A DNA stretch of 64,000 nt from Candidatus Yanofskybacteria bacterium. Its GTDB lineage: Bacteria; Patescibacteriota; Minisyncoccia; 2-02-FULL-40-12; IGHO2-01-FULL-4-A. The stretch spans positions 7,718 through 71,717 of the forward strand of contig JACOZV010000004.1 of NCBI GenBank assembly GCA_016181175.1, read 5' to 3'. The notes beneath the pieces are model-generated. The model saw only the letters and a list, made by a program, of their open reading frames with translations, searched no databases and had not been told where the DNA came from. The stretch's first letter is position 1. Each line of letters opens with the position of its first letter. This document shows, one piece after another, positions 43,618 through 64,000 of the stretch. Position numbers and translations under genes: made by a program.

Positions 43618-43620
43618 AAT

Positions 43621-45178: not shown

Positions 45179-45194
45179 AGTTTTGTTATTTTAA

Positions 45195-45581: not shown

Positions 45582-45685
45582 TCTGTTTAGATAAACTAAG
45601 CTGATGTTTCTCTGTTTTGATTTTCAACTCAGAAAAAGCATCATTCTTAATTATTAATGGGTTGAACTCAGCTCGATGGGCCAAA

Positions 45686-47780: not shown

Positions 47781-47783
47781 AAT

Positions 47784-48030: not shown

Positions 48031-48456
48031 TTATATCCGCCATTTAAAAATAAGGTAAGAGAGTAGGCCAAGTTGTAAAGTTGGAGTTAGCCCCGTATCT
48101 AATAAGGGTATGATCGGCATTAATGAAGTATATGCCCATCGACCGCTACTGATAGCAAAACGTTCTAGTACAACCGCAACAACAACACCGAATATTAACG
48201 CATACCATTTTCTTTCTCTAAAATATGAAATTCTTATAAATAATACAGCTAAAAGTGTTATAAAAAAAGCATCAAAAAGCGTAGCTCGCAATAAAATGAG
48301 TTGAGTTATCTCTCCTGCCTTATAATGGATATACAGATACGAATACAGATTTTCCCAAACTAAATTCAACAAGAAACTAATTATAAAAATTAGAGATAAT
48401 TTCTTAAACATTAGGGCTTTTGATCGAGTTGAGGACGGAGGCAGGTCGCAACACAC
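48031..48456 (-). CDS. Polytopic membrane protein (hypothetical)
   Basis: Four predicted TM helices. Confidence 0.4.
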   Translation of the reverse strand: MCCDLPPSSTRSKALMFKKLSLIFIISFLLNLVWENLYSYLYIHYKAGEITQLILLRATLFDAFFITLLAVLFIRISYFRERKWYALIFGVVVAVVLERFAISSGRWAYTSLMPIIPLLDTGLTPTLQLGLLSYLIFKWRI

Positions 48457-48904
48457 CAGAAACTACTTGATAGGTGGGTAAACGCCTTTATGGCCTATGA
48501 CTGAAAGAAGGCTTTTGCTGATCCAGAAGTGGCTATTAAACAGATATGTCAGCTACTGGCCACAATATAGTGAATTAAAAAACTACTTCCCTGGCCTATC
48601 AAAATCTGGCCCTCGGGGTTCTTTGTCTACAAAAGGTTAGAACTGGATAAAAACCGCTTAAACAAAGCACAAAAGGAAGCTCTCGCTTCCCTTCATTCAC
48701 ACTGGCTCGCTTGGCTAACCGCTTTCCGAACAACGGACTGGTCTAAAATCTTCCCATATCCATTGGTTTCTTTGAGGCAGATGCGCTACTTACTCACTTT
48801 AGTGGACTAACTTTTGCCCTCTTTTTTGCCTTTTTGAATAATTTTCGAACCGGACGACTCCAGCCCAAAAAATCGGGTACTTTACTGCTTACAATACTTT
48901 GCAT

Positions 48905-49075
48905 TTAGGATCCTTGTTTGCGCGCCGGTTCTTCCTTGATTCGACGAAGTGTTTCGTCGAAGAGAATGGCGAAGGCGTCATCAAGATTACGCTGACCTTC
49001 TTCAGTTAAAGGAAGCTGGTGATAGCGCAGCTCAACAAGTAACGGTTTCTGTTTTCTTTTTTTCTTGGTGGTCAT
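48905..49075 (-). CDS. Unlisted small basic protein (56 aa, MTTKKKRKQKPLLVELRYHQLPLTEEGQRNLDDAFAILFDETLRRIKEEPARKQGS)
   Basis: ATG 6 nt after the stop of the upstream nuclease-fold gene; last gene of the co-directional defence array; antitoxin/RHH-like size and charge. Confidence 0.35.
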   Translation of the reverse strand: MTTKKKRKQKPLLVELRYHQLPLTEEGQRNLDDAFAILFDETLRRIKEEPARKQGS

Positions 49076-49080
49076 GACAA

Positions 49081-50559
49081 TTACATTACCAACTTCCTAT
49101 ATGCCCCATCTAAAAAAGTGTCTATTGCTCTGATCTGATTATCTCTCCTTAAATCGAGGAGTGTTTTTATATCATCGTCGTCAAGCGCGATGATAAAACC
49201 TCGATCGTCGGACGCTGTATCTTTGCATCGTTGAATGAAGCGCGTCTTGTTGGTAAAACTCCTGCATATTAACAATCCGAATCTGCCACGATTAGTAGAA
49301 AACCTACCGGACAACTGGTCGAGTTCGGGGTTAGCCGGATCAGATGAGTAATTCTTACACTCAACAAAAATATAGCTTGATGGTACTCGCTTGTTCTGCG
49401 GTAATTCCCAAAAGAACCCTTTTTTTGCAGCGTTTTCGAAAACGATATCAACTTTCTTTCTCCTTTCATGTAGCGGCTGCTCCTTTTTCGGATTTATAAG
49501 AAACGGATAAAAAATGGCAGTGAGCGCCCCTTGAATATGGTTATGGAAATTGTCTGCGTCAGCATCACCAGTATCTATACGATCCAGTTCTGCTTTTAGA
49601 GCATCGAAGTCAAAAGCTGGGCGTGCACCTATAGCATCAATGTCTTCGTTACTAATTTCTTCGAGATTGTACTGTTTACTGTCGCGATATCGTCGCAAAA
49701 CTTCCGGATGATCTTTCGAAAAAGTGTAAAGAAATTGCTTCGAATGAGGGTGAAGTTCTTTGAGTGCCTTTTTTGTAGGCGGTCTACGCGTTCCATCTTT
49801 AAGCACCCTCACAAGGGCAGAGTTCGCGCTTAAATGCTCTTCCTGTAAAAAGTTTAGTACGAAATGCTGATAGTATTCCTGATGGCTAAACTCCAAACTA
49901 AAACGCGCAACTGCTTTAGGGACAAGTAAAACATTTCTATCATTACACACCGGAAGATTAACATACTCATTAGTCCATTCATTACGAACCGTATTCCAAA
50001 CAGTGCCGCTTGGTACGTTGTGCATTGTAATACCCCAAAATATACATTCGTTTTGGGTGTACTCGATTAACTTTCCGCGAATAATGTTAGTGGTCATGTC
50101 AGATATCTTGTCATGGCTGATGCCTTCGATAAGAAGTTCGCACTCTTCAAGATCTTTAAGAAACCCAGTTCTTACAGCCGAGCTTTCAGCCAACGCATCA
50201 TATAAATCGTTCGCCTGATCTCCTCCTACACCCCTACCTCTCGGGGATCCTCCAACAGACAAACCAAAACGAGTTTGATTCGGCTCTCGCAATCCTGAAA
50301 GCATGTATTTTGCGTCATCCTTTCTATCGGCTCTGATCAAGTCGATAACTCTTTGAAAAAAATTAACGATCTGATTGTGGCAATCGATTGACCACCTATC
50401 ATTCCGCTTTGAAAGAGCATAAGGATCAATAAACAAAGGAATATCCCCATTATTTATGGGAACATCGACAAAATCGAGTTCGTACTGGCTTTTACCAAGT
50501 CGGAAGTTCTCCGAAAAGGTTTCGTATCTTCTTGGTTGTTGTGTTCTTTGTCTTGGCAT
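49081..50559 (-). CDS. Hypothetical 492-aa protein with C-terminal PD-(D/E)xK restriction-endonuclease-like fold; candidate RM-associated effector/toxin
   Basis: C-terminal KKVDIVFENAAKKG...SYIFVECKNYSSD (D, E-x-K arrangement); N-terminal 330 aa unrecognised; starts 8 nt after hsdS stop. Confidence 0.5.
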   Translation of the reverse strand: MPRQRTQQPRRYETFSENFRLGKSQYELDFVDVPINNGDIPLFIDPYALSKRNDRWSIDCHNQIVNFFQRVIDLIRADRKDDAKYMLSGLREPNQTRFGLSVGGSPRGRGVGGDQANDLYDALAESSAVRTGFLKDLEECELLIEGISHDKISDMTTNIIRGKLIEYTQNECIFWGITMHNVPSGTVWNTVRNEWTNEYVNLPVCNDRNVLLVPKAVARFSLEFSHQEYYQHFVLNFLQEEHLSANSALVRVLKDGTRRPPTKKALKELHPHSKQFLYTFSKDHPEVLRRYRDSKQYNLEEISNEDIDAIGARPAFDFDALKAELDRIDTGDADADNFHNHIQGALTAIFYPFLINPKKEQPLHERRKKVDIVFENAAKKGFFWELPQNKRVPSSYIFVECKNYSSDPANPELDQLSGRFSTNRGRFGLLICRSFTNKTRFIQRCKDTASDDRGFIIALDDDDIKTLLDLRRDNQIRAIDTFLDGAYRKLVM

Positions 50560-50567: not shown

Positions 50568-52250
50568 CTATTTGATCAATTTCTTATTCCAGCCCTTTGA
50601 TTTGATGAACTTGAGCGTGCCTTCGATTTCGGCTTTCCTAAACTTGTTTGGTTTCCATGCTTGAATCTTGTCATTGATCGTTGTGAGATCGTCGCTTTTT
50701 GCATCCTGCACAACCTTGCAGACGGTTGCCAAGCACTCAATTTGAGCGCTGGTGGAGTTTTTAATTGCCGGCATAAGATCATTAAGGACGGACTCCATGT
50801 TGCTCAAGATTTTTGAGTTGTATTTGAAGAGTTTACCGGAGTTAGCGCCTAAACCATAGACGCCGTTTTTTTGCTGAAAGAAGCCATTGCGAGGACTTGC
50901 GCCGGCGGTGATGGCTTTCTTAATCTGTAGATCGTAGGGGCCGAAGTTCTGCGAGGTAAAGCTGAAGCCGAGCGGTACCCTGTAAACTTCCTGCGCGAGA
51001 TATAAGAGCTTCGCCACAACCATTTCACCACGTTCAAAACGTTGCAACACCGCTCCGATGGCTTGCCACACCGGAAAGACACTTGCTTTGACAGGAACAG
51101 CAGCCACGCCCTCTTTTACCAACTCACCAGCAAGCGCTTTTGACAAGGCGGAATCAAAAAGTTCCTTCAGCTTCTCTTTTTGAACGAGAAGTCCTTTTTT
51201 ATACTCTTTAATAGCACTAAACCTCTCGGCAATGGCATGCTGGTCTGTCGTTGGTGGTACCATGATTTTTATTTTTTTAAGTGCGGTAGAGTTTACTGCG
51301 GCTTGATTTACCCACGGCGTGCATAGATAACGAAATCTATCGGTTGAATATAAGTATTGAAGATATATAGAGAAGTAGCGCGGATCTAATACTTTTTCGT
51401 TTGTGCGAATCCGAGTGATGTGATTTGAAAAGACATACTTGTAATCCTTGTCTATGTAAACGCTTTTTCCAACTAAACTAATACTGTTTGTATTATTAAA
51501 TAGGACATCACCACTCTTCAGGAAATAAGTTTCCGCATGTGGGTAATCCTGTGGAATATACTTGATGCTATCAAAGTTCAAACTACCGTCATCGCCGATA
51601 TTATTAGGTCTGATTTGTCCAATACCCTTCCCAACCGGACGGAAGGCAAAACCATTCGTAACATCGACTACTAACGCACCGATCTTTTCTTCCTTCCAGC
51701 TTTTTGACGATGATCCAAAAATCTTATTCAAAAGCGACTGAAAAAGCTGATCTGTTTTTTCAATAAGCGCATCATTGAGTTTTTGGGCTTCGCGGATAGA
51801 ATCAACACGTTCTGCAATTGCTTGTTGGGTATTTAAAGACGGCATTGGTACTCGTAAATTTTCAAGGAAGGTTCTATTCAAATGTGGTACTGCCGCTCCT
51901 TGCGCTGCTGATCTAATTTTTTGCTGATTAAATTGCAAAAGGTAAGCAAGGTATCGACTTTCCAGTGTTTCGTTATGAACCACTTTAGCAATCGTGGAAC
52001 CAACAAATCCTCTTAAACCGATACCAACGGTGCCGGCATAAGCACCATCCCAAACCAATAAAACATCGTCATTGTCGCATCGAACTCCGTTATTTTCTGA
52101 AGTGTAAAGCGTATATTGACCACTTCTTAAATTTTCAATGCCAATATAAGGCAAGGTGTCCTTTGCGGCTTCTGCTGCGGAAATCATCATTTTACCTTTC
52201 GCAAAAGAAATAAGTTCGCCTAATTTTTTTGTTTGATAATTACTTTGCAT
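50568..52250 (-). CDS. hsdS: Type I restriction-modification specificity subunit HsdS with ~180-aa C-terminal Panacea (DUF4065)-like extension
   Basis: Two TRD/conserved-repeat halves typical of HsdS (aa 1-380), then VVAKLLYLAQEVYRVPLGFSFTSQNFGPYDLQIKKAI resembling the Panacea KLQKLLYYAQ...GP motif; 560 aa versus ~400-450 for typical HsdS. Confidence 0.6.
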   Translation of the reverse strand: MQSNYQTKKLGELISFAKGKMMISAAEAAKDTLPYIGIENLRSGQYTLYTSENNGVRCDNDDVLLVWDGAYAGTVGIGLRGFVGSTIAKVVHNETLESRYLAYLLQFNQQKIRSAAQGAAVPHLNRTFLENLRVPMPSLNTQQAIAERVDSIREAQKLNDALIEKTDQLFQSLLNKIFGSSSKSWKEEKIGALVVDVTNGFAFRPVGKGIGQIRPNNIGDDGSLNFDSIKYIPQDYPHAETYFLKSGDVLFNNTNSISLVGKSVYIDKDYKYVFSNHITRIRTNEKVLDPRYFSIYLQYLYSTDRFRYLCTPWVNQAAVNSTALKKIKIMVPPTTDQHAIAERFSAIKEYKKGLLVQKEKLKELFDSALSKALAGELVKEGVAAVPVKASVFPVWQAIGAVLQRFERGEMVVAKLLYLAQEVYRVPLGFSFTSQNFGPYDLQIKKAITAGASPRNGFFQQKNGVYGLGANSGKLFKYNSKILSNMESVLNDLMPAIKNSTSAQIECLATVCKVVQDAKSDDLTTINDKIQAWKPNKFRKAEIEGTLKFIKSKGWNKKLIK

Positions 52251-52869
52251 AAGAATGCGCAGAGTATTGAATTCTACCTACGCGGTTTAATAAGCGCGTA
52301 TCCCGAACTTTTAAGTTTTCACCATCTTTATCGAATGGCCTTATTTCTGCTTTCCAAATAGATCTACAAAAAACAGTGTTCTGATCATTCATATATGTAA
52401 TTTCTAAACATACTGGTATCGCAAATTCAGCCATTTCATACCATTCTCTAAAATTTTTTATGAGTTGAAGTTTGATTCTAAATGACTCATCCTCTGTGGT
52501 CTGATAGAGGGGCACCTTATGATATCTTTCTTCTGCGATGGGCATACCGGTCGCTTTGGGTTGGGAGATATTAAAAGCCGATCCGCGACCAGAATTGAAA
52601 CAGTCAAACTCTATGGAAAAAACTATTTCAAAATGATTCGCATCAGCACGGATTATGCTTCCGGCATCCATCACACCATATCCATGCTCTACTTCACTAT
52701 GTCTAACCCCAACCCATATTCTTAATGGACGCAAAATTAAGCTGGGTACTGTACTTAATGCAGAATTCCAATCTGCTTTTCTGATAGCTTTTATCGAAAT
52801 CCACAGTGAAACAACTGCGGTTATCCCGACTAAAATATCTGCCGTTTTAGAAATTATTTCAAAATTCAT
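52240..52869 (-). CDS. Hypothetical N-terminally TM-anchored protein (209 aa) inserted between hsdM and hsdS
   Basis: TM ILVGITAVVSLWISI; no recognisable domain; 6-nt gap to hsdM, 11-nt overlap with hsdS. Confidence 0.45.
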   Translation of the reverse strand: MNFEIISKTADILVGITAVVSLWISIKAIRKADWNSALSTVPSLILRPLRIWVGVRHSEVEHGYGVMDAGSIIRADANHFEIVFSIEFDCFNSGRGSAFNISQPKATGMPIAEERYHKVPLYQTTEDESFRIKLQLIKNFREWYEMAEFAIPVCLEITYMNDQNTVFCRSIWKAEIRPFDKDGENLKVRDTRLLNRVGRIQYSAHSYAK

Positions 52870-52875
52870 AATCTT

Positions 52876-54405
52876 TTATCCCAGTTTATCTGTCATCTCT
52901 TCTTGTAATTTTGTTAGATCTTTATTGATTTTCTCAATTTCTTTCAAAATAATTTTTGGCTCGCGGTGTTTTATCTCTTCTCCGATAGCATATGGGTTAT
53001 AAGTGTTTGCAGAAAGTATGTAATCATTTTCGATGATTTCTTTAACTGGCGTAAACCATGCAAGCTGTTTTTCAACTGCGCGGTTTTTATGCCAGAGTTC
53101 CAACAGCTTCGGAATATCATTTCTATATTGGCTGCCGAATTTTTTGGATGCTGAAAGCGATGAACCATCACCTTGCATATCAAAGAACCATACCTTTGCA
53201 GATTCATCGAGTTTCGGCACCGCCTTTTTTTTGAACACCAAGAAGGACGTTTTTACGCCGGCATACGGCTGAAACACGCCTGCCGGCATGGAAACAACCG
53301 CCTGTAAGTCCGTATTTTCAAGTAGAAAACGGCGGATCTCTTTATCATCGCGGTTGGTACCAAAAAATGAACCTTCGGGAAGGATTATGCCGGCTCTGCC
53401 ATTGGGCTTGAGCGAGTTTATAACATGACCCAAAAATAGAACCTGTGTTTTGGTTGATTTGACCGGCAAGGTTGGTTTTATACGTTCCCGATCAACCTTT
53501 CCAGAGAATGGTGGATTTGTAAGGACAATATCGAATGTGCGCAGATCATCCTCATCTTCAGATCCAGCAACCGTGTCTTTGCGCTTAATGTTCGCACTCT
53601 CTATGCCATGTAATATCAAATTCATAAGTGCTAACCGCACCATCTCCGGATCAACATCAGAACCCAAAAAGGTTTTTTTGGTTAGAAATTCCCACTGTTT
53701 TTTATCGAGCTTATCTCCAAACCCCCTCTTGTGTCCATTTTCCTCTTCAATGCTTTTGGGATCGCTATTTCTTAATCGGATCCAATCATAGCCGGAGATG
53801 AGGAAGCCACCAGAACCACACGCAGGATCATAAACAGTTTCGCCAATTTTTGGATTCACCATTTCAACTATGACGCGAACGATATGACGCGGAGTGAGAA
53901 ATTGTCCAAGTTCGCCGGCTGATTCAATACTTGCAAGCAGCTCTTCATAAAGATCGCCCTTAACATCTGTGTCTAATCCTGTTAAATTGATCGTGTCAAT
54001 AATTTCAATCGTGTTTTTTAATGTAACAGAATGGGGAATTTCGAGCTTCGCATCATAAAAAATTTGCCGTATGTTAGAGTGTCCATTTTGCAATCGCTCC
54101 ACAAAGGGAAATACCTCATCACGAACAATTTTATACAATTCATCGCCAGCTTTTTCTTTCCAGCGCGACCATCGGAATTTTTCGTTTTTGCCCTCGAAAA
54201 TTGATTTATGTTTACGCCCAGTAAGTTCTTCGCCTCTCTCCATAGAAATATCCTGTTCCTCAAGCATTTTCAAAAAAAACAAAAAGCTAATCTGCTGGAT
54301 CCTTCTCACAGGGTCTCGTAAACCTGCACCCCAAAGATAATCGTTCAGGCGATCTAATTTTTGGCGAAACTCTATTCTTAATTGTTGTATTTTTTGTTCG
54401 GGCAT
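52876..54405 (-). CDS. hsdM: Type I RM N6-adenine DNA methyltransferase subunit
   Basis: NPPF motif (VLTNPPFSGK), AdoMet motif DPACGSGGFL. Confidence 0.85.
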   Translation of the reverse strand: MPEQKIQQLRIEFRQKLDRLNDYLWGAGLRDPVRRIQQISFLFFLKMLEEQDISMERGEELTGRKHKSIFEGKNEKFRWSRWKEKAGDELYKIVRDEVFPFVERLQNGHSNIRQIFYDAKLEIPHSVTLKNTIEIIDTINLTGLDTDVKGDLYEELLASIESAGELGQFLTPRHIVRVIVEMVNPKIGETVYDPACGSGGFLISGYDWIRLRNSDPKSIEEENGHKRGFGDKLDKKQWEFLTKKTFLGSDVDPEMVRLALMNLILHGIESANIKRKDTVAGSEDEDDLRTFDIVLTNPPFSGKVDRERIKPTLPVKSTKTQVLFLGHVINSLKPNGRAGIILPEGSFFGTNRDDKEIRRFLLENTDLQAVVSMPAGVFQPYAGVKTSFLVFKKKAVPKLDESAKVWFFDMQGDGSSLSASKKFGSQYRNDIPKLLELWHKNRAVEKQLAWFTPVKEIIENDYILSANTYNPYAIGEEIKHREPKIILKEIEKINKDLTKLQEEMTDKLG

Positions 54406-54407
54406 AG

Positions 54408-56663
54408 TTATCGTGTACAGATCCTTTGGTTAAGCTCCGAGAGAGCGGATTGTAAAACACCTTCCTCAAACACTCGCAACGCATAATTAAGACCACCGAT
54501 TTGCCGGAAGATCGGCTCGTTGAATATGGAAATATCAACCGGCTCTTTGCGAACGATACATTGCGACTTTACCAAACGCAGGATTTTTATTTGATCGGAT
54601 GCAAAGTTTTTCTCGATTAGCCATGATTCAAAAAGCTGATTTACACGCTGCTCATGTAGTTGCTCTTCTGTAGGGAACTCCTTTGTTTTGAGTGCTGCTT
54701 GTATGAAGTCATTGAGCGTGCCTACCGGATAGCGATATGCTTCTCGCAAGTTTGCTTCGTTAAAATAGAACTCCGGAGAATTAAGTTTTTCGGAAAGGAA
54801 GGCGGTTTCGTCATTTGAAAGATCTTCGCCTTGTTTAACTTTTGAAATAAGCGGCTCGGTTTTAGCCATCTCTTGAACTTGCTGCTCCCATGCCACCTGA
54901 TAATCATCGGCATCAATTCTTTCGCCTTCTGCTCCAACTTCGATATGCGCACGCTGCATAACCACGTCCATGTTTTCGGGTGCTGTTTCCGGCACTTGAA
55001 CAAAAAGTCGCTTCACCACTTCTTCCTCTTCCTGCGTTAAATCTTCAGCTTCGGTTCCCCACGGAATACCAGCTTTAATTTTTGCATAGGCAGAATACGG
55101 ATCAAATCCTTCGTCATTGAAGTAACGAGTAACGCCAGCAAAGTCATAAATACGAAAAGATGTTTTGCTGATTTTTTGATATAATCGGCTGCCACGTCCT
55201 CGCATCTGTTGGTAAAGGATCGGGGAACGTGTAGGACGCGCCATGATCAAGTTTTCTACCATTGGGACATCGATGCCGGTATCCATCATACCCACCGAAA
55301 CCGCTACCATCGGCATTTCTTGGTGCTTAAAACGTCTTATGGCTCCACGAGGATCTTCGGTATCGGAAGTAATAACTTCAGCGTATCTTCCCTTATATTC
55401 CGGATATGTCTGATTGAGATAATACGCCAATTGCGCAGCGTGTTTTTTCGTAACAGCATAAAGAATGGTTTTGCGATGGTGTTTTGGTTCATGCTTTTCT
55501 TCTTCCTCTCTGAATGTTTTTGCCAATTGCTCGTTTCTTGCCGGCACATTGATTTTTCTCTCCAAATCTTCGGCGTTGTAATCTTCACCCTCAAATTGCA
55601 CACCTTCTAAAGACACTTTGGTGTCGATCTGTAAGATCTCATAACCAGCAAGAAATCCCTCTTTGATGCCTCGTCGAATACTGTATAGAAATGTCGGTTT
55701 ACCCTTTTTTTCACGCTCATCCCAACAACCAAAGAGCTTATAGGTGTTACGATCAATAAACACACTCGGCGTTGCTGTAAGACCTATCCGGATTGCGTCA
55801 AAATGCGATAGGACAGCGTTGTAGATGCCGAAGATGGATCTATGTGCTTCGTCCGAGATAACCACATCAAAATAACCACTTGTAAAATTCGATAGTTGCG
55901 AATAAAGAGTGGGAAGTGTCGAGATGATTATTGAGGATTCGTCTTTTTGCTTGCCTCCGTAAAGAAGCTTTGTAGGATAATCTTTCAAAATTTCATCAAA
56001 AACTTCCTTTGTTTGTATGCCTAAATCAATGCGATCAACAAGAAATAAAACACGCCGGATGAGATTCGCTTCAAACAGCCGTTTGAGATAAAGAGCTATG
56101 GTATCTGTCTTGCCAGTGCCGGTTGCCATAGCGATGAGCATTTTGCGCAAACCGCCCTCAATGGTTTTGTCCATGATCTGCATGGCCTCCTTTTGATATG
56201 GGCGTGGTGTGCGTAATTCGCCACCTTTAAAATAATTGTCGGGTACAGGAATGGCGGTTATCGGCTTTTGATCTATTCGTAGGGTTTGGATTTTTTCTAA
56301 ATCGCGTTGAGAAAAGAAGGTAATTACCTTTTGCTCTGGACGATATTTGTAATCCCAAAAATAAATATCCTCTCCATTGGAAAGGAAAATGAAATCGATA
56401 CCCAGCTCTTCTGCGTAGGTCAATGCCTGCTGTTTTGCCAATACTGGTTCAGTTGAAAACCGCTTTGCTTCGATAAGCCCGATGGCTCTGCCGCGTCTAT
56501 CCCTCAAGAAATAATCGGCACGTCCATCCTTCACCGGATCTTCGGTTGAAACTTGATTTTTATCCTCAATATCCCAGCCAGCTTCGCGGAGTTTGCGATC
56601 GATGACAATGCGAGCGTCCGTTTCTCTTGAGTTGTTATTGTTATTTGTCATATTCATTTTCAT
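54408..56663 (-). CDS. hsdR: Type I restriction enzyme R subunit (compact, 751 aa)
   Basis: N-terminal PD-(D/E)xK (DYFLRD...IEAKR), SF2 helicase Walker A MATGTGKTDT and DEAH-like VVISDEAHRS. Confidence 0.75.
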   Translation of the reverse strand: MKMNMTNNNNNSRETDARIVIDRKLREAGWDIEDKNQVSTEDPVKDGRADYFLRDRRGRAIGLIEAKRFSTEPVLAKQQALTYAEELGIDFIFLSNGEDIYFWDYKYRPEQKVITFFSQRDLEKIQTLRIDQKPITAIPVPDNYFKGGELRTPRPYQKEAMQIMDKTIEGGLRKMLIAMATGTGKTDTIALYLKRLFEANLIRRVLFLVDRIDLGIQTKEVFDEILKDYPTKLLYGGKQKDESSIIISTLPTLYSQLSNFTSGYFDVVISDEAHRSIFGIYNAVLSHFDAIRIGLTATPSVFIDRNTYKLFGCWDEREKKGKPTFLYSIRRGIKEGFLAGYEILQIDTKVSLEGVQFEGEDYNAEDLERKINVPARNEQLAKTFREEEEKHEPKHHRKTILYAVTKKHAAQLAYYLNQTYPEYKGRYAEVITSDTEDPRGAIRRFKHQEMPMVAVSVGMMDTGIDVPMVENLIMARPTRSPILYQQMRGRGSRLYQKISKTSFRIYDFAGVTRYFNDEGFDPYSAYAKIKAGIPWGTEAEDLTQEEEEVVKRLFVQVPETAPENMDVVMQRAHIEVGAEGERIDADDYQVAWEQQVQEMAKTEPLISKVKQGEDLSNDETAFLSEKLNSPEFYFNEANLREAYRYPVGTLNDFIQAALKTKEFPTEEQLHEQRVNQLFESWLIEKNFASDQIKILRLVKSQCIVRKEPVDISIFNEPIFRQIGGLNYALRVFEEGVLQSALSELNQRICTR

Positions 56664-56676: not shown

Positions 56677-58476
56677 CTATAAATTCTCGTAATACCCCCT
56701 GATCTTTTTCGCCATGAGTTTGCGGCGTTCCTTCAAAAACCTTTCGTAATCCCCAAGCTCCATATTCTGAAAGCCATCCGGTATGCAATTCTGTTTTAGG
56801 TTCTCGGCGAGATCTTTTTTATCGGTTATGCCGCCATACTTGAGCTTGCCTCCTTCGGTTTGTTTCATTACTTCAGCCATGTACTCTTTGGGAGATTTTT
56901 TGCCGACTTTGATATTTATTTCAGATTGAGCATAAGTAAAGTTGCCAATCTGGTTGTAATCGCCCCTACTTAAGCCGCCTGCTTTCTTCAGGTATTCCTT
57001 TGGAAAGAGATGATGGATGTCGCCGCGATGACTGATCATATTACCAACGGTAATGTCGGTTGAAAGAAAGCCCCTGTCGTTATTTTTAACCTGTGCCGCA
57101 AAAAAAAGATTGAGAAATGGATTGCTGATGCTCGCCTTATCGAGTTCCTGAATAAGCTGCGCGTTCCAAAAAGCATCGGAGAGTTGCGCTTCTTCGATTG
57201 ATTTCAAAATCTCGCCAGCATCGCCATTGGAAATCTGCTTAATATCCGAATCAAATTGGCTTTCCGGTGATCCGGAATAACGTCCGGTGAGGATAGACAT
57301 CACAAACCAGCGTTGGACATACTTTTCGATCAAGCTTGGATCGACACTCTTATCGCGCAGCTTGAGATATAAAATATAGGCAAAGTTAAGAGCGTTTTGC
57401 GAATTGATAAGGTCGTTGCTTATAAAGCCGCAGGATTTGATGATCATTACAAACCGCTTGAAGTTTGTTTCATTTACAAAATCCAGTACCGCATCACGGA
57501 GTTTTTGGAAAGACGCATCCATTATGTCTTGCTCAAAACTGCGTGTTTCAAAGTTACGCCCCGAAAGCAGTCCGACAAGATCCGCCATCTTGCCTCGTTC
57601 AAATTGTTTGGTGAAACTCACACGCAACACATCGGAATAATCCGGATCGTAGAGGTCGTCATTTTCATCTTTAAGCCATGCAAGTTTTGAAAGGTAAACA
57701 GTTTTGTTAAACTCTGCATCATTTTCAGTTATGTGTTTGTAAAACTGCGGCTCGCGCGCAAGATGGCAAAAATAGTCGACACACTTTCTTAAATTAACGC
57801 CGAAATTATCCTCCTTGTCATAAGAAGCTATCTTCGACATGGCAAAGTCAGCTTGGCTTAATACAACACCTTTGGAATTGATACGGATAAAAATCTCGGT
57901 AACCGTTTCAATATCTAAACCGGCATCAAGTTCAATAAAACCAACCTGCTTGCTTTTGATCTGTAATAACTTCTCAATGTTCTTTTCAATGAGTTCACGA
58001 TTTACGTCAAGATTTTTGTCGCAATAGTCAGTTACATCTTTGAATAAGCCGCCGTCCTTACTCATAAGTTTTGAGATGTCAGCTATCCACGCCTTGTCCT
58101 TTTTTATTGCCGGTGTGAGTGTGGCAAATTCTTCTATGATGGGGTGAAATGCAATATAGATCCGTTCCTCCTTATAATCTTTATTGATAATGTTTTGACC
58201 GAGAATTGCCGCACGGAGAGCGGTAATGCGTTGCTGTCCGTCAATCAAGACCTTTTTGCCGTTGGAAATGGAGCCATCTTTAAGACGAACATCGGGGTTT
58301 TTCCATGCAATGATATAGCCGATCGGATAGCCACGATAAAGCGAATCCATCAGATCGCGCACCTTTGTCGAATCCCAAACAAACGGACGCTGGATTTCCG
58401 GTATAGCGATTTCCTTTTCCTGAACCCAATTCAGGATATTGCTCACAAAGTATTGATTGACTGTGTATTTTTGCAT
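56677..58476 (-). CDS. GmrSD-family Type IV (modification-dependent) restriction endonuclease: DUF262 + DUF1524
   Basis: DUF262 motifs IPEIQRPFVW and DGQQRITAL; C-terminal HNH-like DIHHLFPKEY; start taken at MQKYTVNQY. Confidence 0.75.
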   Translation of the reverse strand: MQKYTVNQYFVSNILNWVQEKEIAIPEIQRPFVWDSTKVRDLMDSLYRGYPIGYIIAWKNPDVRLKDGSISNGKKVLIDGQQRITALRAAILGQNIINKDYKEERIYIAFHPIIEEFATLTPAIKKDKAWIADISKLMSKDGGLFKDVTDYCDKNLDVNRELIEKNIEKLLQIKSKQVGFIELDAGLDIETVTEIFIRINSKGVVLSQADFAMSKIASYDKEDNFGVNLRKCVDYFCHLAREPQFYKHITENDAEFNKTVYLSKLAWLKDENDDLYDPDYSDVLRVSFTKQFERGKMADLVGLLSGRNFETRSFEQDIMDASFQKLRDAVLDFVNETNFKRFVMIIKSCGFISNDLINSQNALNFAYILYLKLRDKSVDPSLIEKYVQRWFVMSILTGRYSGSPESQFDSDIKQISNGDAGEILKSIEEAQLSDAFWNAQLIQELDKASISNPFLNLFFAAQVKNNDRGFLSTDITVGNMISHRGDIHHLFPKEYLKKAGGLSRGDYNQIGNFTYAQSEINIKVGKKSPKEYMAEVMKQTEGGKLKYGGITDKKDLAENLKQNCIPDGFQNMELGDYERFLKERRKLMAKKIRGYYENL

Positions 58477-58477: not shown

Positions 58478-58666
58478 TTACTTTTTTGGTTTCTTGATAT
58501 TCGATCGAGAACGAATAAACGCCTCGAGATCGCTCTCGCTGATCCGCCAATAGCCGACTTTGGTCGCCTTGAGCCGCCCACTCGAAATATAGCGATACAA
58601 GGATCGCTCGCTAACTCGCAAATACTTTGCCGCTTCACGTAATGTAAGAAATTTCTTTTTGGTCAT
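58478..58666 (-). CDS. Excisionase/Xis-family helix-turn-helix DNA-binding protein (62 aa)
   Basis: LTLREAAKYLRVSERSLYRYISSGRLKATKVGYWRISESDLEAF matches the excisionase-type HTH. Confidence 0.65.
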   Translation of the reverse strand: MTKKKFLTLREAAKYLRVSERSLYRYISSGRLKATKVGYWRISESDLEAFIRSRSNIKKPKK

Positions 58667-58693
58667 AGGTCAATTGATTTCATTCTATCGCAA

Positions 58694-58715
58694 AAAAGCC
58701 ACATGGTCAAATGTG
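58694..58715. promoter_or_regulatory. Operator-like motif TGGTCAAATGTGGCAA.GTC.G (copy 1) upstream of the xis-like gene
   Basis: 18/20 identical to the copy at 59331-59352. Confidence 0.45.
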
Positions 58716-58747
58716 GCAAAGTCGGTTATCTTCCTAAAAGGCAGGTG

Positions 58748-59188
58748 TTAGCAGGGGTAACCATTTGGACAAATATCTTCCTGTCGTTCGGTCGTCGGAT
58801 CAATAGGGGTGTTTAAGTCCGGCACGGTATGGTTGCGTGCCATCAACCACCAAACGAGAAGTATCCAAAATCCCCAAAATAAAACTACTGGAACAACTTT
58901 TGAGATGTTTTTCTTTACTCTGATTTTCAACGGAGGGTGAAGTACATGTTTAAGCTCATGGCTTGCTAAATCGCCGTACTCGATTTTCTCCACACACTTT
59001 GGACACGCAACAAATTCTTTCTGCTGCTCGGAAAAGCGCTTGTTTACTCTTGCCCAGAACCCCTCGTCAATAAATGGATTTCTATTTTTTCCGCTCATAG
59101 TTTTGTGAGCGGCGAGTTTTGAAACACAAAACCCACCACTGGGAGGGCTTGCGCCCCTATGGAAGTTTCCCTCCATAACGTTAGGCAC
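58748..59188 (-). CDS. Hypothetical protein with Cys/His zinc-finger-like motif and C-terminal TM helix
   Basis: CPKCVEKIEYGDLASHELKH; TM VVPVVLFWGFWILLVWWLM. Confidence 0.4.
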   Translation of the reverse strand: MPNVMEGNFHRGASPPSGGFCVSKLAAHKTMSGKNRNPFIDEGFWARVNKRFSEQQKEFVACPKCVEKIEYGDLASHELKHVLHPPLKIRVKKNISKVVPVVLFWGFWILLVWWLMARNHTVPDLNTPIDPTTERQEDICPNGYPC

Positions 59189-59330
59189 GCCCCAAATGAT
59201 GGGTTTTCTATGCCTAACGATTTGCGACCATGCCGCCAGCCGAAGCCGATGGTTTAGATCATTTGATATCCAATTGTGTTTTTAAGTATATCAGAAAAAC
59301 ATGAGATCCTGCAACGGATGAAAAATACTG

Positions 59331-59352
59331 CTGGTCAAATGTGGCAAGGTCT
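59331..59352. promoter_or_regulatory. Operator-like motif copy 2 in the divergent promoter region
   Basis: ctGGTCAAATGTGGCAAgGTCtG. Confidence 0.45.
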
Positions 59353-59371
59353 GCTAAAATGAGTTTTAAGA

Positions 59372-59869
59372 ATGACGATGAATATGAAAATGAATAGTAA
59401 AAAAACCGAACCATTTCGCGTTGTTATAAATACAAGTACCGACCCCAATGTGCCATTGATTGAGCTTGTACGTGGTAACCGGAAAGCCAAACTTCCACCT
59501 ATTGCGATCAAAAACGTACGTCTTGATACCGATCGCTATTTGCTTGTCGTAAATGACGGCGAGCGCGTTGTTGCCTTTAAGTCAAAAAGGCACAAGAAGG
59601 GACTGGATAAAGAAACGAAGCTATTTAAAGTGCTGGTATTGCTTTTTGATTTTCGCCTCGAAAAAAAGGGTGAAAAAATACTCCACAGCAAAAACCTTAA
59701 CCCCGACTACACTTCTCTAAAAAATATCGCCGGAAATAGCGGAAGCCCAACACAAGAAGCAGCATATAGAAACATAAAGCGGTTAAATGGCTACTTTGAG
59801 GAAAATGGCTTGTCTATATGGATTGAAAAACACGGCAATGATTGCCGCCTCGTAGTTAAGAAGAGTTAA
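59372..59869 (+). CDS. Hypothetical protein (165 aa), mobile-element module
   Basis: ORF with plausible coding bias; no recognisable domain. Confidence 0.4.
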   Translation: MTMNMKMNSKKTEPFRVVINTSTDPNVPLIELVRGNRKAKLPPIAIKNVRLDTDRYLLVVNDGERVVAFKSKRHKKGLDKETKLFKVLVLLFDFRLEKKGEKILHSKNLNPDYTSLKNIAGNSGSPTQEAAYRNIKRLNGYFEENGLSIWIEKHGNDCRLVVKKS

Positions 59870-60052
59870 TACGCGGACATTATTTTTACAGAAGCGCTCG
59901 ATACTTTAAGGATAAAAGCGCTCAAAAAGTAGAAAAAATCCCTCAAGGGACATTTTGAAAATGTCCCCGATTTTTCTCAATAGTGAATGATATGGTCAAA
60001 GCAAGATACGCTTTGGCTTTTTTGTTTTCCCAAGCCAGCGCGGTCGGATGAT

Positions 60053-60298
60053 ATGAAGATACTAAATGAAAAAAACTTTTATCAAACTTCTGACTTTTGC
60101 CTCGCAACGGTTATTTCACTTTCTTTTCCGATAGAAGCAGTAGATCGGCAGAACACGCGAAAAGTTCAATTTATATTTCGTCGCAATAACGTCCTCGATA
60201 AGCTGATCGAGGATTTTTGGCGTGGTGAGATCCGAATTGATCCACAGCTTTTCTATAACCAATTACGAGTGATGAAAGCTCGGATTTACAACGACTAA
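60053..60298 (+). CDS. Hypothetical small protein
   Basis: ORF 59987-60298; likely start MKILNEK. Confidence 0.35.
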   Translation: MKILNEKNFYQTSDFCLATVISLSFPIEAVDRQNTRKVQFIFRRNNVLDKLIEDFWRGEIRIDPQLFYNQLRVMKARIYND

Positions 60299-60299
60299 C

Positions 60300-60554
60300 A
60301 TGCTTAAACCATCGGCAATTGAAGAATTAAGGTCGATATTGCTCGAAGAGTTTGGGCGTGATGTTGATATTAAAACAGCCAGAACGATCGGCGAGGATTT
60401 AGTCGGCTTCTACGACACTCTCGCAAAGATCGCGCATAAGGATAAAACGATAAGCAAAAATCTTTCCCCTTGCTCGGGTTCCATAGTGGACTATCCACTT
60501 GCAATGAGTAGTTCATTGAAAAAGAGGGTGGAACCCGAACAAAGAGAAAGATAA
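60300..60554 (+). CDS. Hypothetical small protein (84 aa)
   Basis: Starts 2 nt after the previous ORF and is immediately followed by the helicase gene. Confidence 0.4.
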   Translation: MLKPSAIEELRSILLEEFGRDVDIKTARTIGEDLVGFYDTLAKIAHKDKTISKNLSPCSGSIVDYPLAMSSSLKKRVEPEQRER

Positions 60555-60565
60555 AAAAAGAAATT

Positions 60566-62125
60566 ATGAAAAACATTTTTAGTGGTAACCACAAAAAAGG
60601 AAAGGTGTCCGACAAACTGAAGGGCGCGGAATTGGTTTTAGATGTGATCGAAAAAAGCGACTTATGGCTCTTTCACGATCAATTAAACGAGGCATACGCC
60701 GTTATAGCTGGTGATGGAGCATCAATAATGAAAATCGACTCGCAAAAGTTCCACAACTGGCTTTTTAATCATATCTATGACGAAACCGGAAAGATCAGCA
60801 ACACAGCCGCGTGCGAGGCAGCCATAAAGGTTCTGAAACATCAAGCAGAAACTGGGAATCTATTTGAGCTTGGAGTTAGGGTAAAACTGCGTGAGGGCGG
60901 TATTTGGTACGATCTCGGCGGTCAAAACTTTGTGAGTATCGCAGAAGATGGATGGTTGGTAACTGATCCTCCGCAACCAATCCTCTTTAAGAGGTTCGGG
61001 CATCAAAAAGAGCAGGTGCGACCGGAACGCGAGGGTAGCATGAATGAGTTTATGGAGCTTATTAACCTACAAGACAAAAAAGAATCTTTGCTCCTCATGG
61101 TTTACTTGGTTGCATCGTTTATTCCTAACTTTCCTCATCCTGTATTGATTGTGCATGGTTCGCAGGGGGCTGCTAAAAGTACCGCATGTAAATTGATTAA
61201 AGAATTAGTGGATCCATCTGCATTAGAAACTTCGACTATAAACGACGATAAAGACATAAAAGAATTGGTACAAGCCGCATCGCATCATTGGCTGTTAGTT
61301 CTCGATAATATCTCCTATATCTCCGAGAAAATCTCGGACACGATCTCACGAATATGTACCGGAGGCGGATTATCTAAAAGAATACATTATAGCAATGACG
61401 ACGACTTCATTTACAACTTTATGCACATAGTCGCCATTAACGGAATCCATCAGATCGTAAGCAAGCCCGATCTCCTCGATCGATCAATCTTGTTGGCGCT
61501 TGAACGCATCCCTGAAGATAAAAGGATAACGGAGGAGCAACTTTGGGGTCGTTTCAATGCAATGAAAGGAAGAGTTCTCGGCGCGGTTTTCGATGCCGTA
61601 TCCGGAGCATTGCGTGAATATCCGAATGTGCAGTTAGCAACATTGCCACGAATGGCGGACTTTGCACGCTGGGGATGCGCTATTGCGAGGACGCTCGGCT
61701 ACACCGACGAGGACTTTATGAATGTATACAAAACGAATATCGGAAGGCAGAACCAAGAGGCGCTTTCAGCAAGCGCCACAGCAGCAGTCATCATCAAGCT
61801 CATGGAAGATAATGATGTTTTCGAAGATACACCATCTGCTCTTTTGCGACTAATGGATCCGATAGCCGACGATCTCAAGGTAAAAGAAGCGAAGGATTAT
61901 CCACGACAGGCAAACTGGCTTTGGAGGCGCATTGAAGCGGTTATACCGAACCTTGCTGACGCCGGCATAAAGGTCGAGCAAACGAAAGATACTGAACGGA
62001 AGATAAAAATATCAAAGATATTGCGCGGTGATGACAGCACTGAAATTATGCCGTCTTCCGAAAAACCAGCAGAAGAACCTGCAAAAGACAGCATCGACAG
62101 CATAGACGGCACTTTCCCCCTGTAG
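60566..62125 (+). CDS. Phage/plasmid primase-associated SF3 helicase (D5/P4-alpha-like) replication protein
   Basis: Walker A VHGSQGAAKST, Walker B LLVLDNISY, motif C VAINGIH in SF3 spacing. Confidence 0.6.
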   Translation: MKNIFSGNHKKGKVSDKLKGAELVLDVIEKSDLWLFHDQLNEAYAVIAGDGASIMKIDSQKFHNWLFNHIYDETGKISNTAACEAAIKVLKHQAETGNLFELGVRVKLREGGIWYDLGGQNFVSIAEDGWLVTDPPQPILFKRFGHQKEQVRPEREGSMNEFMELINLQDKKESLLLMVYLVASFIPNFPHPVLIVHGSQGAAKSTACKLIKELVDPSALETSTINDDKDIKELVQAASHHWLLVLDNISYISEKISDTISRICTGGGLSKRIHYSNDDDFIYNFMHIVAINGIHQIVSKPDLLDRSILLALERIPEDKRITEEQLWGRFNAMKGRVLGAVFDAVSGALREYPNVQLATLPRMADFARWGCAIARTLGYTDEDFMNVYKTNIGRQNQEALSASATAAVIIKLMEDNDVFEDTPSALLRLMDPIADDLKVKEAKDYPRQANWLWRRIEAVIPNLADAGIKVEQTKDTERKIKISKILRGDDSTEIMPSSEKPAEEPAKDSIDSIDGTFPL

Positions 62126-62190
62126 GTTTTGGGGTTGTAGGGGTAAATAAAGAAATAGGAATTGCTGTCTGTGTTGTCGGTAAAAAAACT

Positions 62191-62418
62191 ATGAAGAATC
62201 GAACCGAACAATTTAGAGCATGGCGAAGGCGCAATCCGGCGGCATGGAACGCTATTGTAAAGCGCTGCAAGCGCAAGGGGCGCGCGCTCAAGCTACAGTG
62301 GGTTATAAACGAGTATTCGCGCTGGCAGAAGTGGTGTGCAGCGCATCCAGCACAACACCGTAAAATAGCACGCGATTCTTACCACAGAAGAAAAACAAAT
62401 AAGATCAGGGATGCTTGA
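62191..62418 (+). CDS. Small highly basic protein (75 aa)
   Basis: Arg/Lys/Trp-rich; immediately upstream of iteron-like array. Confidence 0.35.
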   Translation: MKNRTEQFRAWRRRNPAAWNAIVKRCKRKGRALKLQWVINEYSRWQKWCAAHPAQHRKIARDSYHRRKTNKIRDA

Positions 62419-62700
62419 GTTGTATTCATTGTCAGATTTTTATCTGGCAGCAAGCTGGGTTGTATTCGTTGTCAAAGTGTACATGGATATAACTACAGTA
62501 GTAATGTGCGCATAAAAGATGGGGTTGAACAGGAGTGCGTGTCGTATTGTCAAGCTTCGAAGCAAGTATTGCACGCAAAGAAAAGATGGCTTGATTGAAA
62601 ACGTGTATTTGTTTGTCAAGCCCCGAAGAGAAAAACAAGGAAAAAAGTAAACATTGTATCGACAATGTATTGATAGTATAATGGCAATGTACCCCCAGTT
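62419..62700. repeat. Iteron-like array of TTGTATTC/TTGTCAA-type repeats (candidate origin or recombinase-binding site)
   Basis: gttgtattcattgtcag (62419), gttgtattcgttgtcaaag (62460), cgtattgtcaagc (62541), gtatttgtttgtcaagc (62595), attgtatcgacaatgtattgatagtataatgg (62653). Confidence 0.5.
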
Positions 62701-62808
62701 GCACTACAATCCGTGATTTTTTATTGGCTTCTGCCCTTAAGGGGGGCGGTGCCGGAAGCCAATCCTCACGGAAAAAGCGACTGGGGTACCACCGCTCCCT
62801 TTAAGTTT

Positions 62809-64000
62809 ATGAAAAACGAACAAAATACAACTAAAAATAAGGCGATTTCCTTTTGCCGCGTAAGCTCGAAGGAGCAAGCCGATGAGGGTTATTCGCTTGA
62901 ATCGCAGGAAAAGCTACTTGAGGCATACGCTACAGACGATAAACGAGATTTTAAGATCATCAAGATCTATAAGATCACGGAATCAGCGAGCGGAAAGCAG
63001 GTACGAAAGACATTTCAGGAAGCACTGAAATACGCCACTGATCAAAAAATAAAGATCATTCTGTGTGAAAAGATTGATCGATTAACACGCAACCTTAAAG
63101 ACGCCAGCACAATTGACGATTGGGTAAAGGATAAAGACACTACCGGTCGGCAGGTTCACTTTGTAAAGGAAAACTTTATTCTTAACGCTGATACAAAGGC
63201 ACACGATAACCTTGTGTGGGATATGAAGGTGGCTATTGCGCGTTTCTATTCAAACAATCTATCCGAAGAAGTGAAGAAGGGGCAAAAGGAAAAGATCGCG
63301 CAAGGATGGCTTCCTACGAAGCCGCCGCTTGGGTATCGCACGATCGGCGACAAAGGGCATAAAACGCACGAAATTGACGAGAAGATCGCCCCATATATCC
63401 GTAAGATGTTTGAGCTTTACGCTACCGGTAATTACTCAACGCTTTCTTTGGTAAGGGTTATGTACAAGGAAGGTTTGCGCAACCGCGAGGGTAAAAGGGT
63501 TGGAAAGAGTAGATTGCATCAATTGCTTTCGGATCCATTTTATTACGGCAAGATGCGATGGAAAGGCGAGGTTGTTAAAGCAGAACACGAACCCCTTATT
63601 CCGAAAGAATTGTTTGACGACGTTCAAAAAATACTTGTCCGGAAGATCAAATATCCCATGTATAGGAAACACCTCCCTATATTTAAGGCGATGCTGCGCT
63701 GCGGAGAGTGCAAAGGCACTGTTACGTGGGAAATACAAAAAAATCATTGGTACGCTCACTGTAGCCATTACCGAAACTGCAAGCAAAAAAAGTATGTCCG
63801 GCAGGAAGCTGTCGAAGAACAGCTTTTCCCATACTTTGATCGAGTTGCCCCGATAAACACGCGCTTGCTGCAGTGGCTTGAGAAGCAGCTTAAAGAAAGC
63901 CACACCGAAGAGATCAAATACAACACCTCAAAGCGAGAGGAGTTAAACCGGATCATCGCAACCGCCGATAGACGGATCGAGGCGGCGTATAAAGAGAAGC
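62809..64000 (+). CDS. Large serine recombinase (integrase), partial - continues past window end
   Basis: N-terminal resolvase catalytic domain ISFCRVSSKEQADEGYSLESQ with catalytic Ser; recombinase domain; Cys zinc-ribbon CGECKG...CSHYRNC; no stop before 64000. Confidence 0.8.
   Translation, partial: MKNEQNTTKNKAISFCRVSSKEQADEGYSLESQEKLLEAYATDDKRDFKIIKIYKITESASGKQVRKTFQEALKYATDQKIKIILCEKIDRLTRNLKDASTIDDWVKDKDTTGRQVHFVKENFILNADTKAHDNLVWDMKVAIARFYSNNLSEEVKKGQKEKIAQGWLPTKPPLGYRTIGDKGHKTHEIDEKIAPYIRKMFELYATGNYSTLSLVRVMYKEGLRNREGKRVGKSRLHQLLSDPFYYGKMRWKGEVVKAEHEPLIPKELFDDVQKILVRKIKYPMYRKHLPIFKAMLRCGECKGTVTWEIQKNHWYAHCSHYRNCKQKKYVRQEAVEEQLFPYFDRVAPINTRLLQWLEKQLKESHTEEIKYNTSKREELNRIIATADRRIEAAYKEK

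Follow-up and report, generated by a model that had tools for sequence, protein, structure and literature searches.

The window under study, a 64,000-nt stretch of Candidatus Yanofskybacteria DNA (GenBank assembly GCA_016181175.1, contig JACOZV010000004.1, positions 7,718 to 71,717), ends inside a gene for a large serine recombinase. Its segment from 48.43 to 64.0 kb, continued to ~64.54 kb beyond the window, is likely to be one integrated copy of a ~16-kb integrative, self-replicating element of the candidate phyla radiation (CPR). A mobile-element backbone had already been proposed in an initial annotation of this DNA and is supported by the identities of the recombinase, the helicase, and the small helix-turn-helix (HTH) protein HTH_17, as well as by tRNA-linked relatives; every feature named there was found at its given coordinates. 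These relatives (loci with the prefix L below) apparently belong to a widespread, undescribed family of elements that sit beside tRNA genes and carry swappable anti-phage cargo. The backbone of the window's element comprises the following features.

62809–64000 (+): large serine recombinase, N-terminal 397 of ~624 amino acids (aa), from Pfam and PHROG matches; the remainder lies past the window
62191–62418 (+): basic, Trp-rich 75-aa open reading frame (ORF) 5' of the recombinase, from the ORF list; gene status uncertain, similar basic ORF in L010, no family match
60566–62125 (+): D5/SaPI5-like superfamily 3 (SF3) helicase, 519 aa, without primase domain, from the AlphaFold/Foldseek fold and primase-fused homologues
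60300–60554 (+): 84-aa backbone protein, conserved in eight related loci, always directly upstream of the replication ATPase
59987–60298 (+): DUF5659 backbone protein (Pfam 3.9e-08), by tblastn also in L003, L014, L017, and L018
59372–59869 (+): 165-aa protein, first gene of the rightward (replication/integration) operon, no family match
59332–59347 (−): 16-mer TTGCCACATTTGACCA, copy 1 of an exact repeat, upstream of LOOT, operator- or promoter-like
59121–59260 (−): LOOT RNA (RF03000) with a terminator-like 3' extension past the Rfam model, from Rfam and our own model R1
58748–59098 (−): 116-aa protein with CxxC and a transmembrane segment, 3' of LOOT, from sequence reading; no family match
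58704–58719 (−): 16-mer TTGCCACATTTGACCA, copy 2, inside the hairpin GCCACAT-N6-ATGTGGC
58478–58666 (−): HTH_17/excisionase-family DNA-binding protein, 62 aa, heading the cargo operon, from Pfam, PHROG, and NCBIfam

Serine recombinase, proposed tRNA target, and related loci

The recombinase gene runs as a stop-free frame from 62809 to the window end at 64000, and its designation as a large serine recombinase in the initial annotation is borne out by profile matches (Resolvase PF00239, 5e-24; Recombinase PF07508, 4.7e-17; phrog_95 'integrase', 4.6e-70). The protein shows the architecture of this enzyme class: an N-terminal catalytic domain of the resolvase type, its serine nucleophile lying in the motif FCRVSSKEQ (RVSSKEQ being residues 17–23), a Recombinase domain, and a zinc ribbon. 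The latter (Zn_ribbon_recom PF13408) scores 23.5 bits, just below the cut-off of 25.3, and the domain is recorded in homologues. The fragment in the window is 100% identical to P0123 (MBI2063306.1), a full-length protein encoded on a 126.7-kb contig of a Ca. Yanofskybacteria metagenome-assembled genome (MAG), whose C-terminal tail reads '...DLLREQDSNLQPSPYTLSNTFVSGWTISL', also given as '...SRDLLREQDSNLQPSPYTLSNTFVSGWTISLSF...'. According to the DNA of L025, L006, and L007, this tail corresponds to the antisense 3' exon of tRNA-Asn followed by a group I intron. In the relatives L009, L010, and L013 (93–95% identical), the recombinase ORF stops inside tRNA-Asn(GTT), in antisense, with the equivalent tail '...DLLRRQDSNLQPTP*'; the extra tail of the window's recombinase matches the antisense strand of the group I intron that interrupts the tRNA-Asn anticodon loop in L025, L006, and L007 (Rfam Intron_gpI: L006, 81 bits; L025, 40.6 bits).

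Group I introns in the anticodon loop of tRNA-Asn(GTT) occur in several CPR hosts (L006 11607–11914, L025 3815–4029, and the right end of L007). Judged from the recombinase tail, the tRNA-Asn of the window's genome is probably intron-bearing as well. The far end of the element, placed beyond the window by the initial annotation, would accordingly lie ~540 nt past it, at the 3' end (~64,536) of an intron-containing tRNA-Asn(GTT), as deduced from the full-length protein and the relatives. A 16,354-bp Logan contig from the run of another sample is 100% identical to the window from 48211 onwards and, by its length, reaches ~64,564, i.e. ~28 nt into the predicted tRNA.

Relatives of the recombinase were collected at 28 loci (6 from a genome scan and 22 from a metagenome scan), mostly in CPR MAGs and in 26 cases at 47–95% identity. 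Wherever a contig extends far enough, the stop codon of the recombinase falls within a tRNA in antisense, as seen in ~20 relatives; the tRNA is tRNA-Asn at nine loci, tRNA-Gln in L014, tRNA-Asp in L015/L016, and tRNA-His in L017. The gene order is recurrent: a small HTH gene stands at the head of a leftward operon of large and variable genes, and opposite to it runs a divergent replication/integration arm. This arm encodes a 165–350-aa protein, DUF5659, the 84-aa family, a replication ATPase (in some loci the D5-like helicase, in others an AAA_25 protein), a small ORF, and the recombinase, and is followed by the tRNA.

Two of the relatives, L019 and L020 (ERZ869929 and ERZ869925), are circular permutations of one 8,984-bp sequence, L020 with a 55-nt terminal overlap. 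This circle carries LOOT and a serine recombinase 58% identical to that of the window, contains no tRNA, and is a free, episomal member of the family. Its recombinase-distal junction was taken as attP and served as the reference. In L007, the attR site has the form P|tRNA-Asn, with 55/80 identities to attP left of the core and 23/80 at the other junction. The attL site has the form flank|P', with 52/70 identities right of the core, the reciprocal comparisons being at background. The crossover lies at the shared TGGGCTC, the very 3' end of the tRNA gene, and a degenerate tRNA 3' half makes up the P' arm. An OLD-family nuclease is encoded between the two junctions, which are separated by 6,972 bp. 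The stretch 4505–4669 of L007 had also been considered as a recombinase fragment, which was ruled out, the region being attL/P'. For a putative attP x attB integration at a defined site by the recombinase of the window, the indications are indirect: the circular relative and the att pattern of L019 and L007.

Movement of the family is also indicated by L009 and L010, which share ~100% identical recombinase DNA adjoining tRNA-Asn genes with different, compensated acceptor stems, a pattern that fits recent transfer between hosts. A 27-nt palindrome, AAAAACCTCGC-GCAAG-GCGAAGTTTTT, is found in the recombinase tail of both loci (L009 11520–11550, L010 1918–1946), and at this position the otherwise identical sequences fall to ~88% identity. 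It may act as a terminator, mark a recombination breakpoint, or offer an alternative site of crossover. A crossover at this palindrome was rejected for the window, with no similar half-site near 48–49 kb.

Stand-alone small GIY-YIG nuclease genes adjoin tRNAs in the window (513–800, minus strand, between tRNA-Thr(GGT) and tRNA-Tyr) and in L004 (2214–2480), L017 (11623–12012), and L024 (6551–6793). In the three related loci, they are flanked by duplicated tRNA 5' fragments split by a GC-rich hairpin, and these units look like a separate tiny tRNA-associated mobile unit.

Proposed replication arm, LOOT RNA, and probable cargo operon

The 519-aa protein contains the Walker A (GSQGAAKST), Walker B (LLVLDN), and motif C (Asn) elements of the AAA+-like core of SF3 helicases, and G198, G201, K204, T206, D247, N248, N292, and R306 are invariant in 35 homologues. 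Searches of Pfam, PHROG, and NCBIfam gave no match at E <= 0.01, and matches to PDB profiles concern the P-loop only. An AlphaFold model built on the 35 homologues (pLDDT 84) was compared with the PDB by Foldseek, yielding the primase-helicase of SaPI5 as best match (7OLA, E 3.7e-10, TM 0.52/0.60), along with the NrS-1 helicase, the PrimPol of African swine fever virus (ASFV), E5 of monkeypox virus (MPXV), and D5 of vaccinia virus (E 3.7e-10 to 1e-6). More than 1000 homologues are found, many with an N-terminal Prim-Pol, PriCT_1, Toprim, or RepB-primase fusion, and homologues also occur on small plasmids of Methanothrix, Methylobacterium, and Streptomyces. The designation as a D5/P4-type SF3 helicase in the initial annotation is thus right, though by modelled fold and fusion context only, the sequence family being unmodelled in the profile libraries. 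The small hypothetical proteins noted there likewise hold up, as DUF5659, the conserved 84-aa protein, and the 165-aa, 116-aa, and 75-aa orphans. In relatives, the position of the 165-aa gene is occupied by unrelated proteins of 196–348 aa.

On the opposite strand, the 62-aa HTH protein was recognized as excisionase-like from the start, and this family assignment is confirmed by HTH_17 (PF12728, 2.9e-18) and by TIGR01764 'excisionase family' (48 bits; cut-off, 28.8), with further matches to phrog_66 and phrog_2907; as is typical of the family, it is a small MerR-like winged HTH protein. Its counterpart in L009/L011 is 87% identical at the aa and 85% at the nt level, and the recombinase there is 93% identical (aa), so that the two form a co-varying pair. 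The gene lies 4 kb from the recombinase and is translationally coupled to the cargo operon. Its product could equally be a directionality factor (Xis) or a regulator of the cargo operon (PADLOC mad1-like). Copy 2 of the 16-mer overlaps the −35 element of the HTH_17 promoter (TTGACC-17-TAGAAT), and since it forms a hairpin over this promoter, TTGCCACATTTGACCA is predicted to be a plausible operator. The 16-mer pair brackets LOOT and the 116-aa gene and is kept in L009. The 116-aa gene was listed as a 146-aa ORF (58748–59188), which truly begins at the ATG at 59098 because its 5' part is LOOT RNA.

LOOT is the sole non-tRNA Rfam family in the window. The motif (Rfam RF03000; Weinberg et al. 2017, PMC5737381) has been listed solely as a 'metagenomic-based' small RNA (PMC7779021), and no function or genomic context was found for it in the searchable literature. 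Measured against the Rfam family, the window copy is a full-length match (59144–59260, minus strand, model positions 1–121) with 71.1 bits against a gathering score of 46.4, here with a defined genomic context; our own model R1 gives 109.6 bits, and the fold has a z-score of −5.4. LOOT occurs in 9/18 distinct related loci, always on the strand opposite to the recombinase, 2–7 kb upstream of it, and 0–160 nt upstream of a variable ORF. Besides the window, the carriers are L003, L011, L014, L016, L017, L019, L024, L029, L042, and L212. Common to the instances are an extended −10 promoter, the conserved ACAACTnAATAT, and, outside the Rfam model, a terminator-like 3' tail (CCnGTGGTGGGYTTTGTGTTT, also given as GTGGTGGG-UUUGUGUUU).

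In a reciprocal test, IMG/VR was scanned with LOOT-like DNA patterns, and the matches were filtered by our own covariance model. Two of the three loose patterns gave almost only noise, and the real LOOTs were those of L042 and L212 alone. In both of these independently found viral contigs, LOOT lies beside a serine recombinase 24–30% identical to that of the window, with nuclease or methyltransferase genes nearby, and L212 is a phage-like contig with terminase-like genes. The hitherto orphan LOOT is a backbone part of half of these serine-recombinase elements. With its tail directly before variable ORFs, it would most simply be an attenuator/leader or an immunity RNA. Phage P4 uses a small RNA (CI) as immunity factor, and by analogy, LOOT might control the element either as an attenuator or as an immunity/copy-control RNA of this kind. 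A tentative and rather doubtful extension of this idea holds that LOOT, rather than being a stand-alone small RNA, is the dedicated control RNA of an unrecognised CPR-wide lineage of serine-recombinase elements and temperate phages, heading a 'lysogenic' cargo arm and deciding on the transcription of defence and accessory genes, and that the recombinases form a new clade targeting tRNA 3' ends with a P' arm that mimics a tRNA half.

The leftward operon behind HTH_17 consists of defence genes.

56677–58476 (−): GmrSD-type (DUF262) type IV restriction enzyme (Pfam GmrSD_N 6.8e-33; PADLOC HEC-05)
50568–56663 (−): type I restriction-modification (R-M) system, whole (Pfam, PADLOC)
54408–56663 (−): HsdR
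52876–54405 (−): HsdM
52240–52869 (−): 209-aa protein between hsdM and hsdS, no family match
50568–52250 (−): HsdS
49081–50559 (−): 492-aa DUF8370 protein, candidate defence protein PDC-M36A (PADLOC)
48905–49075 (−): 56-aa ORF, uncertain gene, beginning 5 nt after the 492-aa gene and uncalled in the gene sets of the Logan contigs
48669–48696 (−): terminator-like hairpin closing the leftward operon

HsdR, HsdM, and HsdS are present together, as expected for a type I system. That the operon may be cargo had been suggested initially, and this is most likely the best reading for the window copy, judged from the swap of cargo behind the same backbone, the att-enclosed nuclease of L007, and the 16,354-bp identical Logan contig. 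DNA similarity between the window and L009/L011 is limited to the recombinase (85% nt), HTH_17 with its promoter (85% nt), and LOOT (71%). Behind the conserved HTH, L009/L011 carry an N6_N4 methyltransferase, a ResIII helicase, a HARE-HTH protein, and an AAA_15 protein, where the window has GmrSD and type I R-M. A third cargo, a 1524-aa SF1 helicase, follows the HTH_17 homologue of L018, the cargo of L015 is a PLD-SNF2 protein, and L016 has a type I R-M system between a Cro-like HTH and LOOT.

The 209-aa protein overlaps both hsdM and hsdS and may be an unrecognised accessory subunit of the type I system. Within hsdS, two Logan contigs of one run, each matching the window at 100% identity, share exactly 30 nt at their ends (50927–50956); this de Bruijn branch suggests hsdS variants in that community.

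Observed domain and fold identities, the tRNA adjacency throughout the family, the circular member, the att logic of L007, the cargo swap behind HTH_17, and LOOT as a backbone part are compatible with a mechanism in which two divergent arms would extend from a control region at 58.7–59.4 kb. The recombinase would integrate and excise a circle at the 3' end of tRNA-Asn(GTT), with a P' arm mimicking the tRNA half, and the SF3 helicase and the small proteins would replicate the excised circle. The leftward arm would start with LOOT, equipped with its own extended −10 promoter and terminator-like tail, and continue with the small membrane protein, HTH_17, and an exchangeable cargo slot. It would be expressed in the integrated state, the cargo protecting both host and element. 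HTH_17 might autoregulate this arm via the 16-mer sites, act as directionality factor, or do both, and LOOT would gate or regulate leftward transcription. These roles of HTH_17 and LOOT, the exact att sites, the transfer route, and continued mobility of this particular copy are inferred rather than read directly from the window.

Left boundary and alternative readings

A candidate for the near end of the element is found at the following position.

48425–48470 (+): candidate attL, a degenerate tRNA-Asn 3' half, CGGAGGCAGG--TCGCAAC...AACTACTTGATAG, best non-tRNA match in the window

Positions 48436–48470 are the best match in the window, tRNA genes aside, to the tRNA-Asn 3' half of the relatives and lie on the expected strand. 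The candidate has the same layout as the attL of L007 and is situated ~200 nt beyond the terminator-like hairpin of the leftward operon; one 100%-identical Logan contig ends at 48409. That the true near boundary lies here, at ~48,430–48,470, is put only a shade above an even chance; the candidate would then represent the P' arm brought in by the element, and the crossover would fall at ~48430–48435. The initial annotation had suggested that the boundary may lie in a 620-bp non-coding stretch (48457–49080). The weak candidate lies at the left edge of that stretch; the 56-aa ORF (48905–49075) is inside it, and the real gap is ~48412–48904, next to a membrane-protein gene at 48031–48411. A 22-nt repeat at 48961/62215 was discarded, being at chance level (~0.3 expected).

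The region directly left of the element (41000–47800) holds a thiol/redox cluster with TrxB-like, DsbA, DsbD, AhpC/TSA, DoxX, MerC-like, ArsR-like, and FMN reductase genes, which is unusual ballast for a CPR genome. A DUF3179 gene in it is split into two ORFs of 102 and 215 aa (45686–46656, minus strand), due to a frameshift, pseudogene formation, or an assembly error. No homologues of the left flank were found in any related locus retrieved.

Several points weigh against an integrated, self-replicating element with these borders. The score of the candidate attL is marginal (13.5 against a background of 13.0), and the scan for pseudo-tRNA halves, which overlooks the attL known from L007, has little power; the same scan at the distal ends of other loci was set aside for this reason. 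By T-arm pattern, blastn-short, and local alignment, the window yielded neither a direct repeat nor a clean tRNA-Asn remnant that could mark attL. For this copy, attL has candidate status, the attP and circular junctions are predictions, no empty site turned up among the related loci retrieved, and the tRNA and attR were derived from the protein and the relatives. In L009/L010, identity drops ~200 nt before the tRNA, and the crossover of this clade could lie there rather than at the tRNA 3' end. Neither the 519-aa protein nor the element as a whole offers a fused or adjacent primase. Capsid and conjugation genes are absent from the element, and no transfer or packaging genes were found. The peptide patterns of this recombinase retrieved no relatives from IMG/VR.

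In a rival reading, the element would be the ~6-kb backbone only (~58.4–64.5 kb), with its left end at or just after HTH_17 and the operon as an abutting chromosomal defence island, e.g. if islands tend to grow at the ends of elements. Nucleotide similarity to L009/L011 indeed ends within HTH_17, ~37 nt short of its stop codon; left of the cargo, the window showed no gene or RNA of backbone type; and the attL of the window has candidate status. This reading is nevertheless judged unlikely. GmrSD starts 1 nt after the HTH_17 stop codon, and in L011 and L018, the HTH gene and the gene at the front of the cargo share ~20 nt; with such spacing, there is no room for a ~50-bp att site behind the HTH. 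The att-bounded element of L007 includes its defence gene, the R-M system of L016 lies between backbone parts, and the 16.35-kb identical Logan contig holds backbone and cargo in one block, while exact copies of the left-flank proteins FMN reductase and TrxB are not on record in the runs holding the element.

It is similarly improbable that the segment represents a decayed, immobile remnant of a temperate CPR phage or satellite, kept for its defence genes, with a vestigial or otherwise employed recombinase. A remnant would explain why structural, packaging, and transfer genes as well as a primase are missing, but the family also includes a small circular member that is just as poor in genes. 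The degenerate pseudo-tRNA at the candidate attL and the presence of LOOT and a serine recombinase on phage-like contigs of IMG/VR that carry terminase-like genes (L212 and L042) would fit a phage in decay; all backbone ORFs are, however, intact, and the recombinase is of full length with its catalytic motif. Near-identical recombinase DNA in two host backgrounds and an identical element in three sequencing runs also speak against a remnant. Finally, the recombinase could be a local invertase or resolvase that switches the adjacent restriction system, e.g. by hsdS shuffling, instead of an integrase. The de Bruijn branch in hsdS hints at such variants, yet the 47.5–64 kb region contains neither inverted hsdS repeats nor a second hsdS copy, which largely refutes an hsdS shufflon. 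The full large-serine-recombinase architecture and the association of the recombinase family with the 3' ends of tRNAs, where neighbouring R-M systems vary or are missing, make this last explanation very improbable. An integrated element including its defence cargo is the reading preferred here.

Relation to known elements and significance

In its logic, the element seems closest to tycheposons and to P4-like satellites and phage-inducible chromosomal islands (PICIs) with defence hot spots, from which it would differ in five respects: the serine recombinase, the tRNA overlap, the pseudo-tRNA P' arm, the lack of packaging genes, and LOOT. Tycheposons of Prochlorococcus reside at tRNA genes and consist of an integrase, an optional xis, primase/helicase replication, and exchangeable cargo modules; in a minority, the integrase is a large serine recombinase (Hackl et al., bioRxiv 10.1101/2020.12.28.424599). 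They resemble the family described here as small tRNA-integrated elements with integrase, replication, and cargo modules, a likeness in module layout. The window's family occurs in CPR, always has a large serine recombinase with an ORF overlapping the tRNA, carries mostly anti-phage defence as cargo, and contains LOOT. An integrase adjoining a full-length tRNA, a feature of tycheposon-like elements, is seen in the relatives and deduced for the window from the tail of P0123. Whereas tycheposons have a clean partial tRNA repeat at the distal end, the corresponding feature in the window would be a degenerate pseudo-tRNA half, for which it offers the weakly scoring candidate at 48436–48470 only.

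P4-like satellites, PICIs, and Staphylococcus aureus pathogenicity islands (SaPIs) share with the element an integrase, a divergent control region, a D5/alpha-type helicase (7OLA being the best fold match), an AlpA/Xis-like HTH, and a variable slot for defence genes. Their integrase is a tyrosine recombinase, whereas a serine recombinase is used here, and the helicase here is without a primase domain. PHROG and Pfam gave no match to genes for hijacking helper capsids (terS, cos/pac, capsid-size, Psu/Sid-like) in 58.4–64 kb, so that the element, lacking capsid-remodelling, cos/pac, or terS genes, gives no sign of helper-phage parasitism.

Known large serine recombinases mostly integrate in protein-coding genes or intergenic sites. 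The window's enzyme has the Resolvase, Recombinase, and zinc-ribbon domains of the phage-type members (phiC31, Bxb1, SPbeta SprA, SCCmec Ccr, and Anabaena XisF), and as with these, no long direct repeats are found at the junctions; its NCBIfam similarity to XisF and CcrB (~89–90 bits) is far under the cut-offs. In contrast to them, its family targets tRNA 3' ends, with a clade-specific choice of tRNA and a P' arm that imitates the 3' half of the tRNA. The head of the cargo operon is also reminiscent of the MADS defence system, in which a small HTH_17-type protein precedes a methyltransferase-containing operon (PADLOC mad1, 43.5 bits, 6.7e-12). NCBIfam MAD1, however, reaches 29 bits against a cut-off of 80, and the mad1–mad8 set at curated scores is not present. 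Matches to mad2 and mad5 are weaker than those to type I R-M models, the methyltransferase, S, and R subunits fit far better as ordinary type I R-M, and in L011, the operon behind this HTH (87% identical) is an unrelated one.

CPR bacteria (Patescibacteria) have tiny genomes and few described mobile elements. The present findings point to a compact modular family that moves anti-phage systems among them, ranging from the 8,984-bp circle to the ~16-kb copy of the window, and add an unmodelled D5-like helicase family. With the first genomic context found for the orphan LOOT RNA, its function is now open to experiment. The candidate tRNA-directed serine integrases with their predictable att sites may serve as genetic tools for CPR bacteria or as a source of new integrase specificities.

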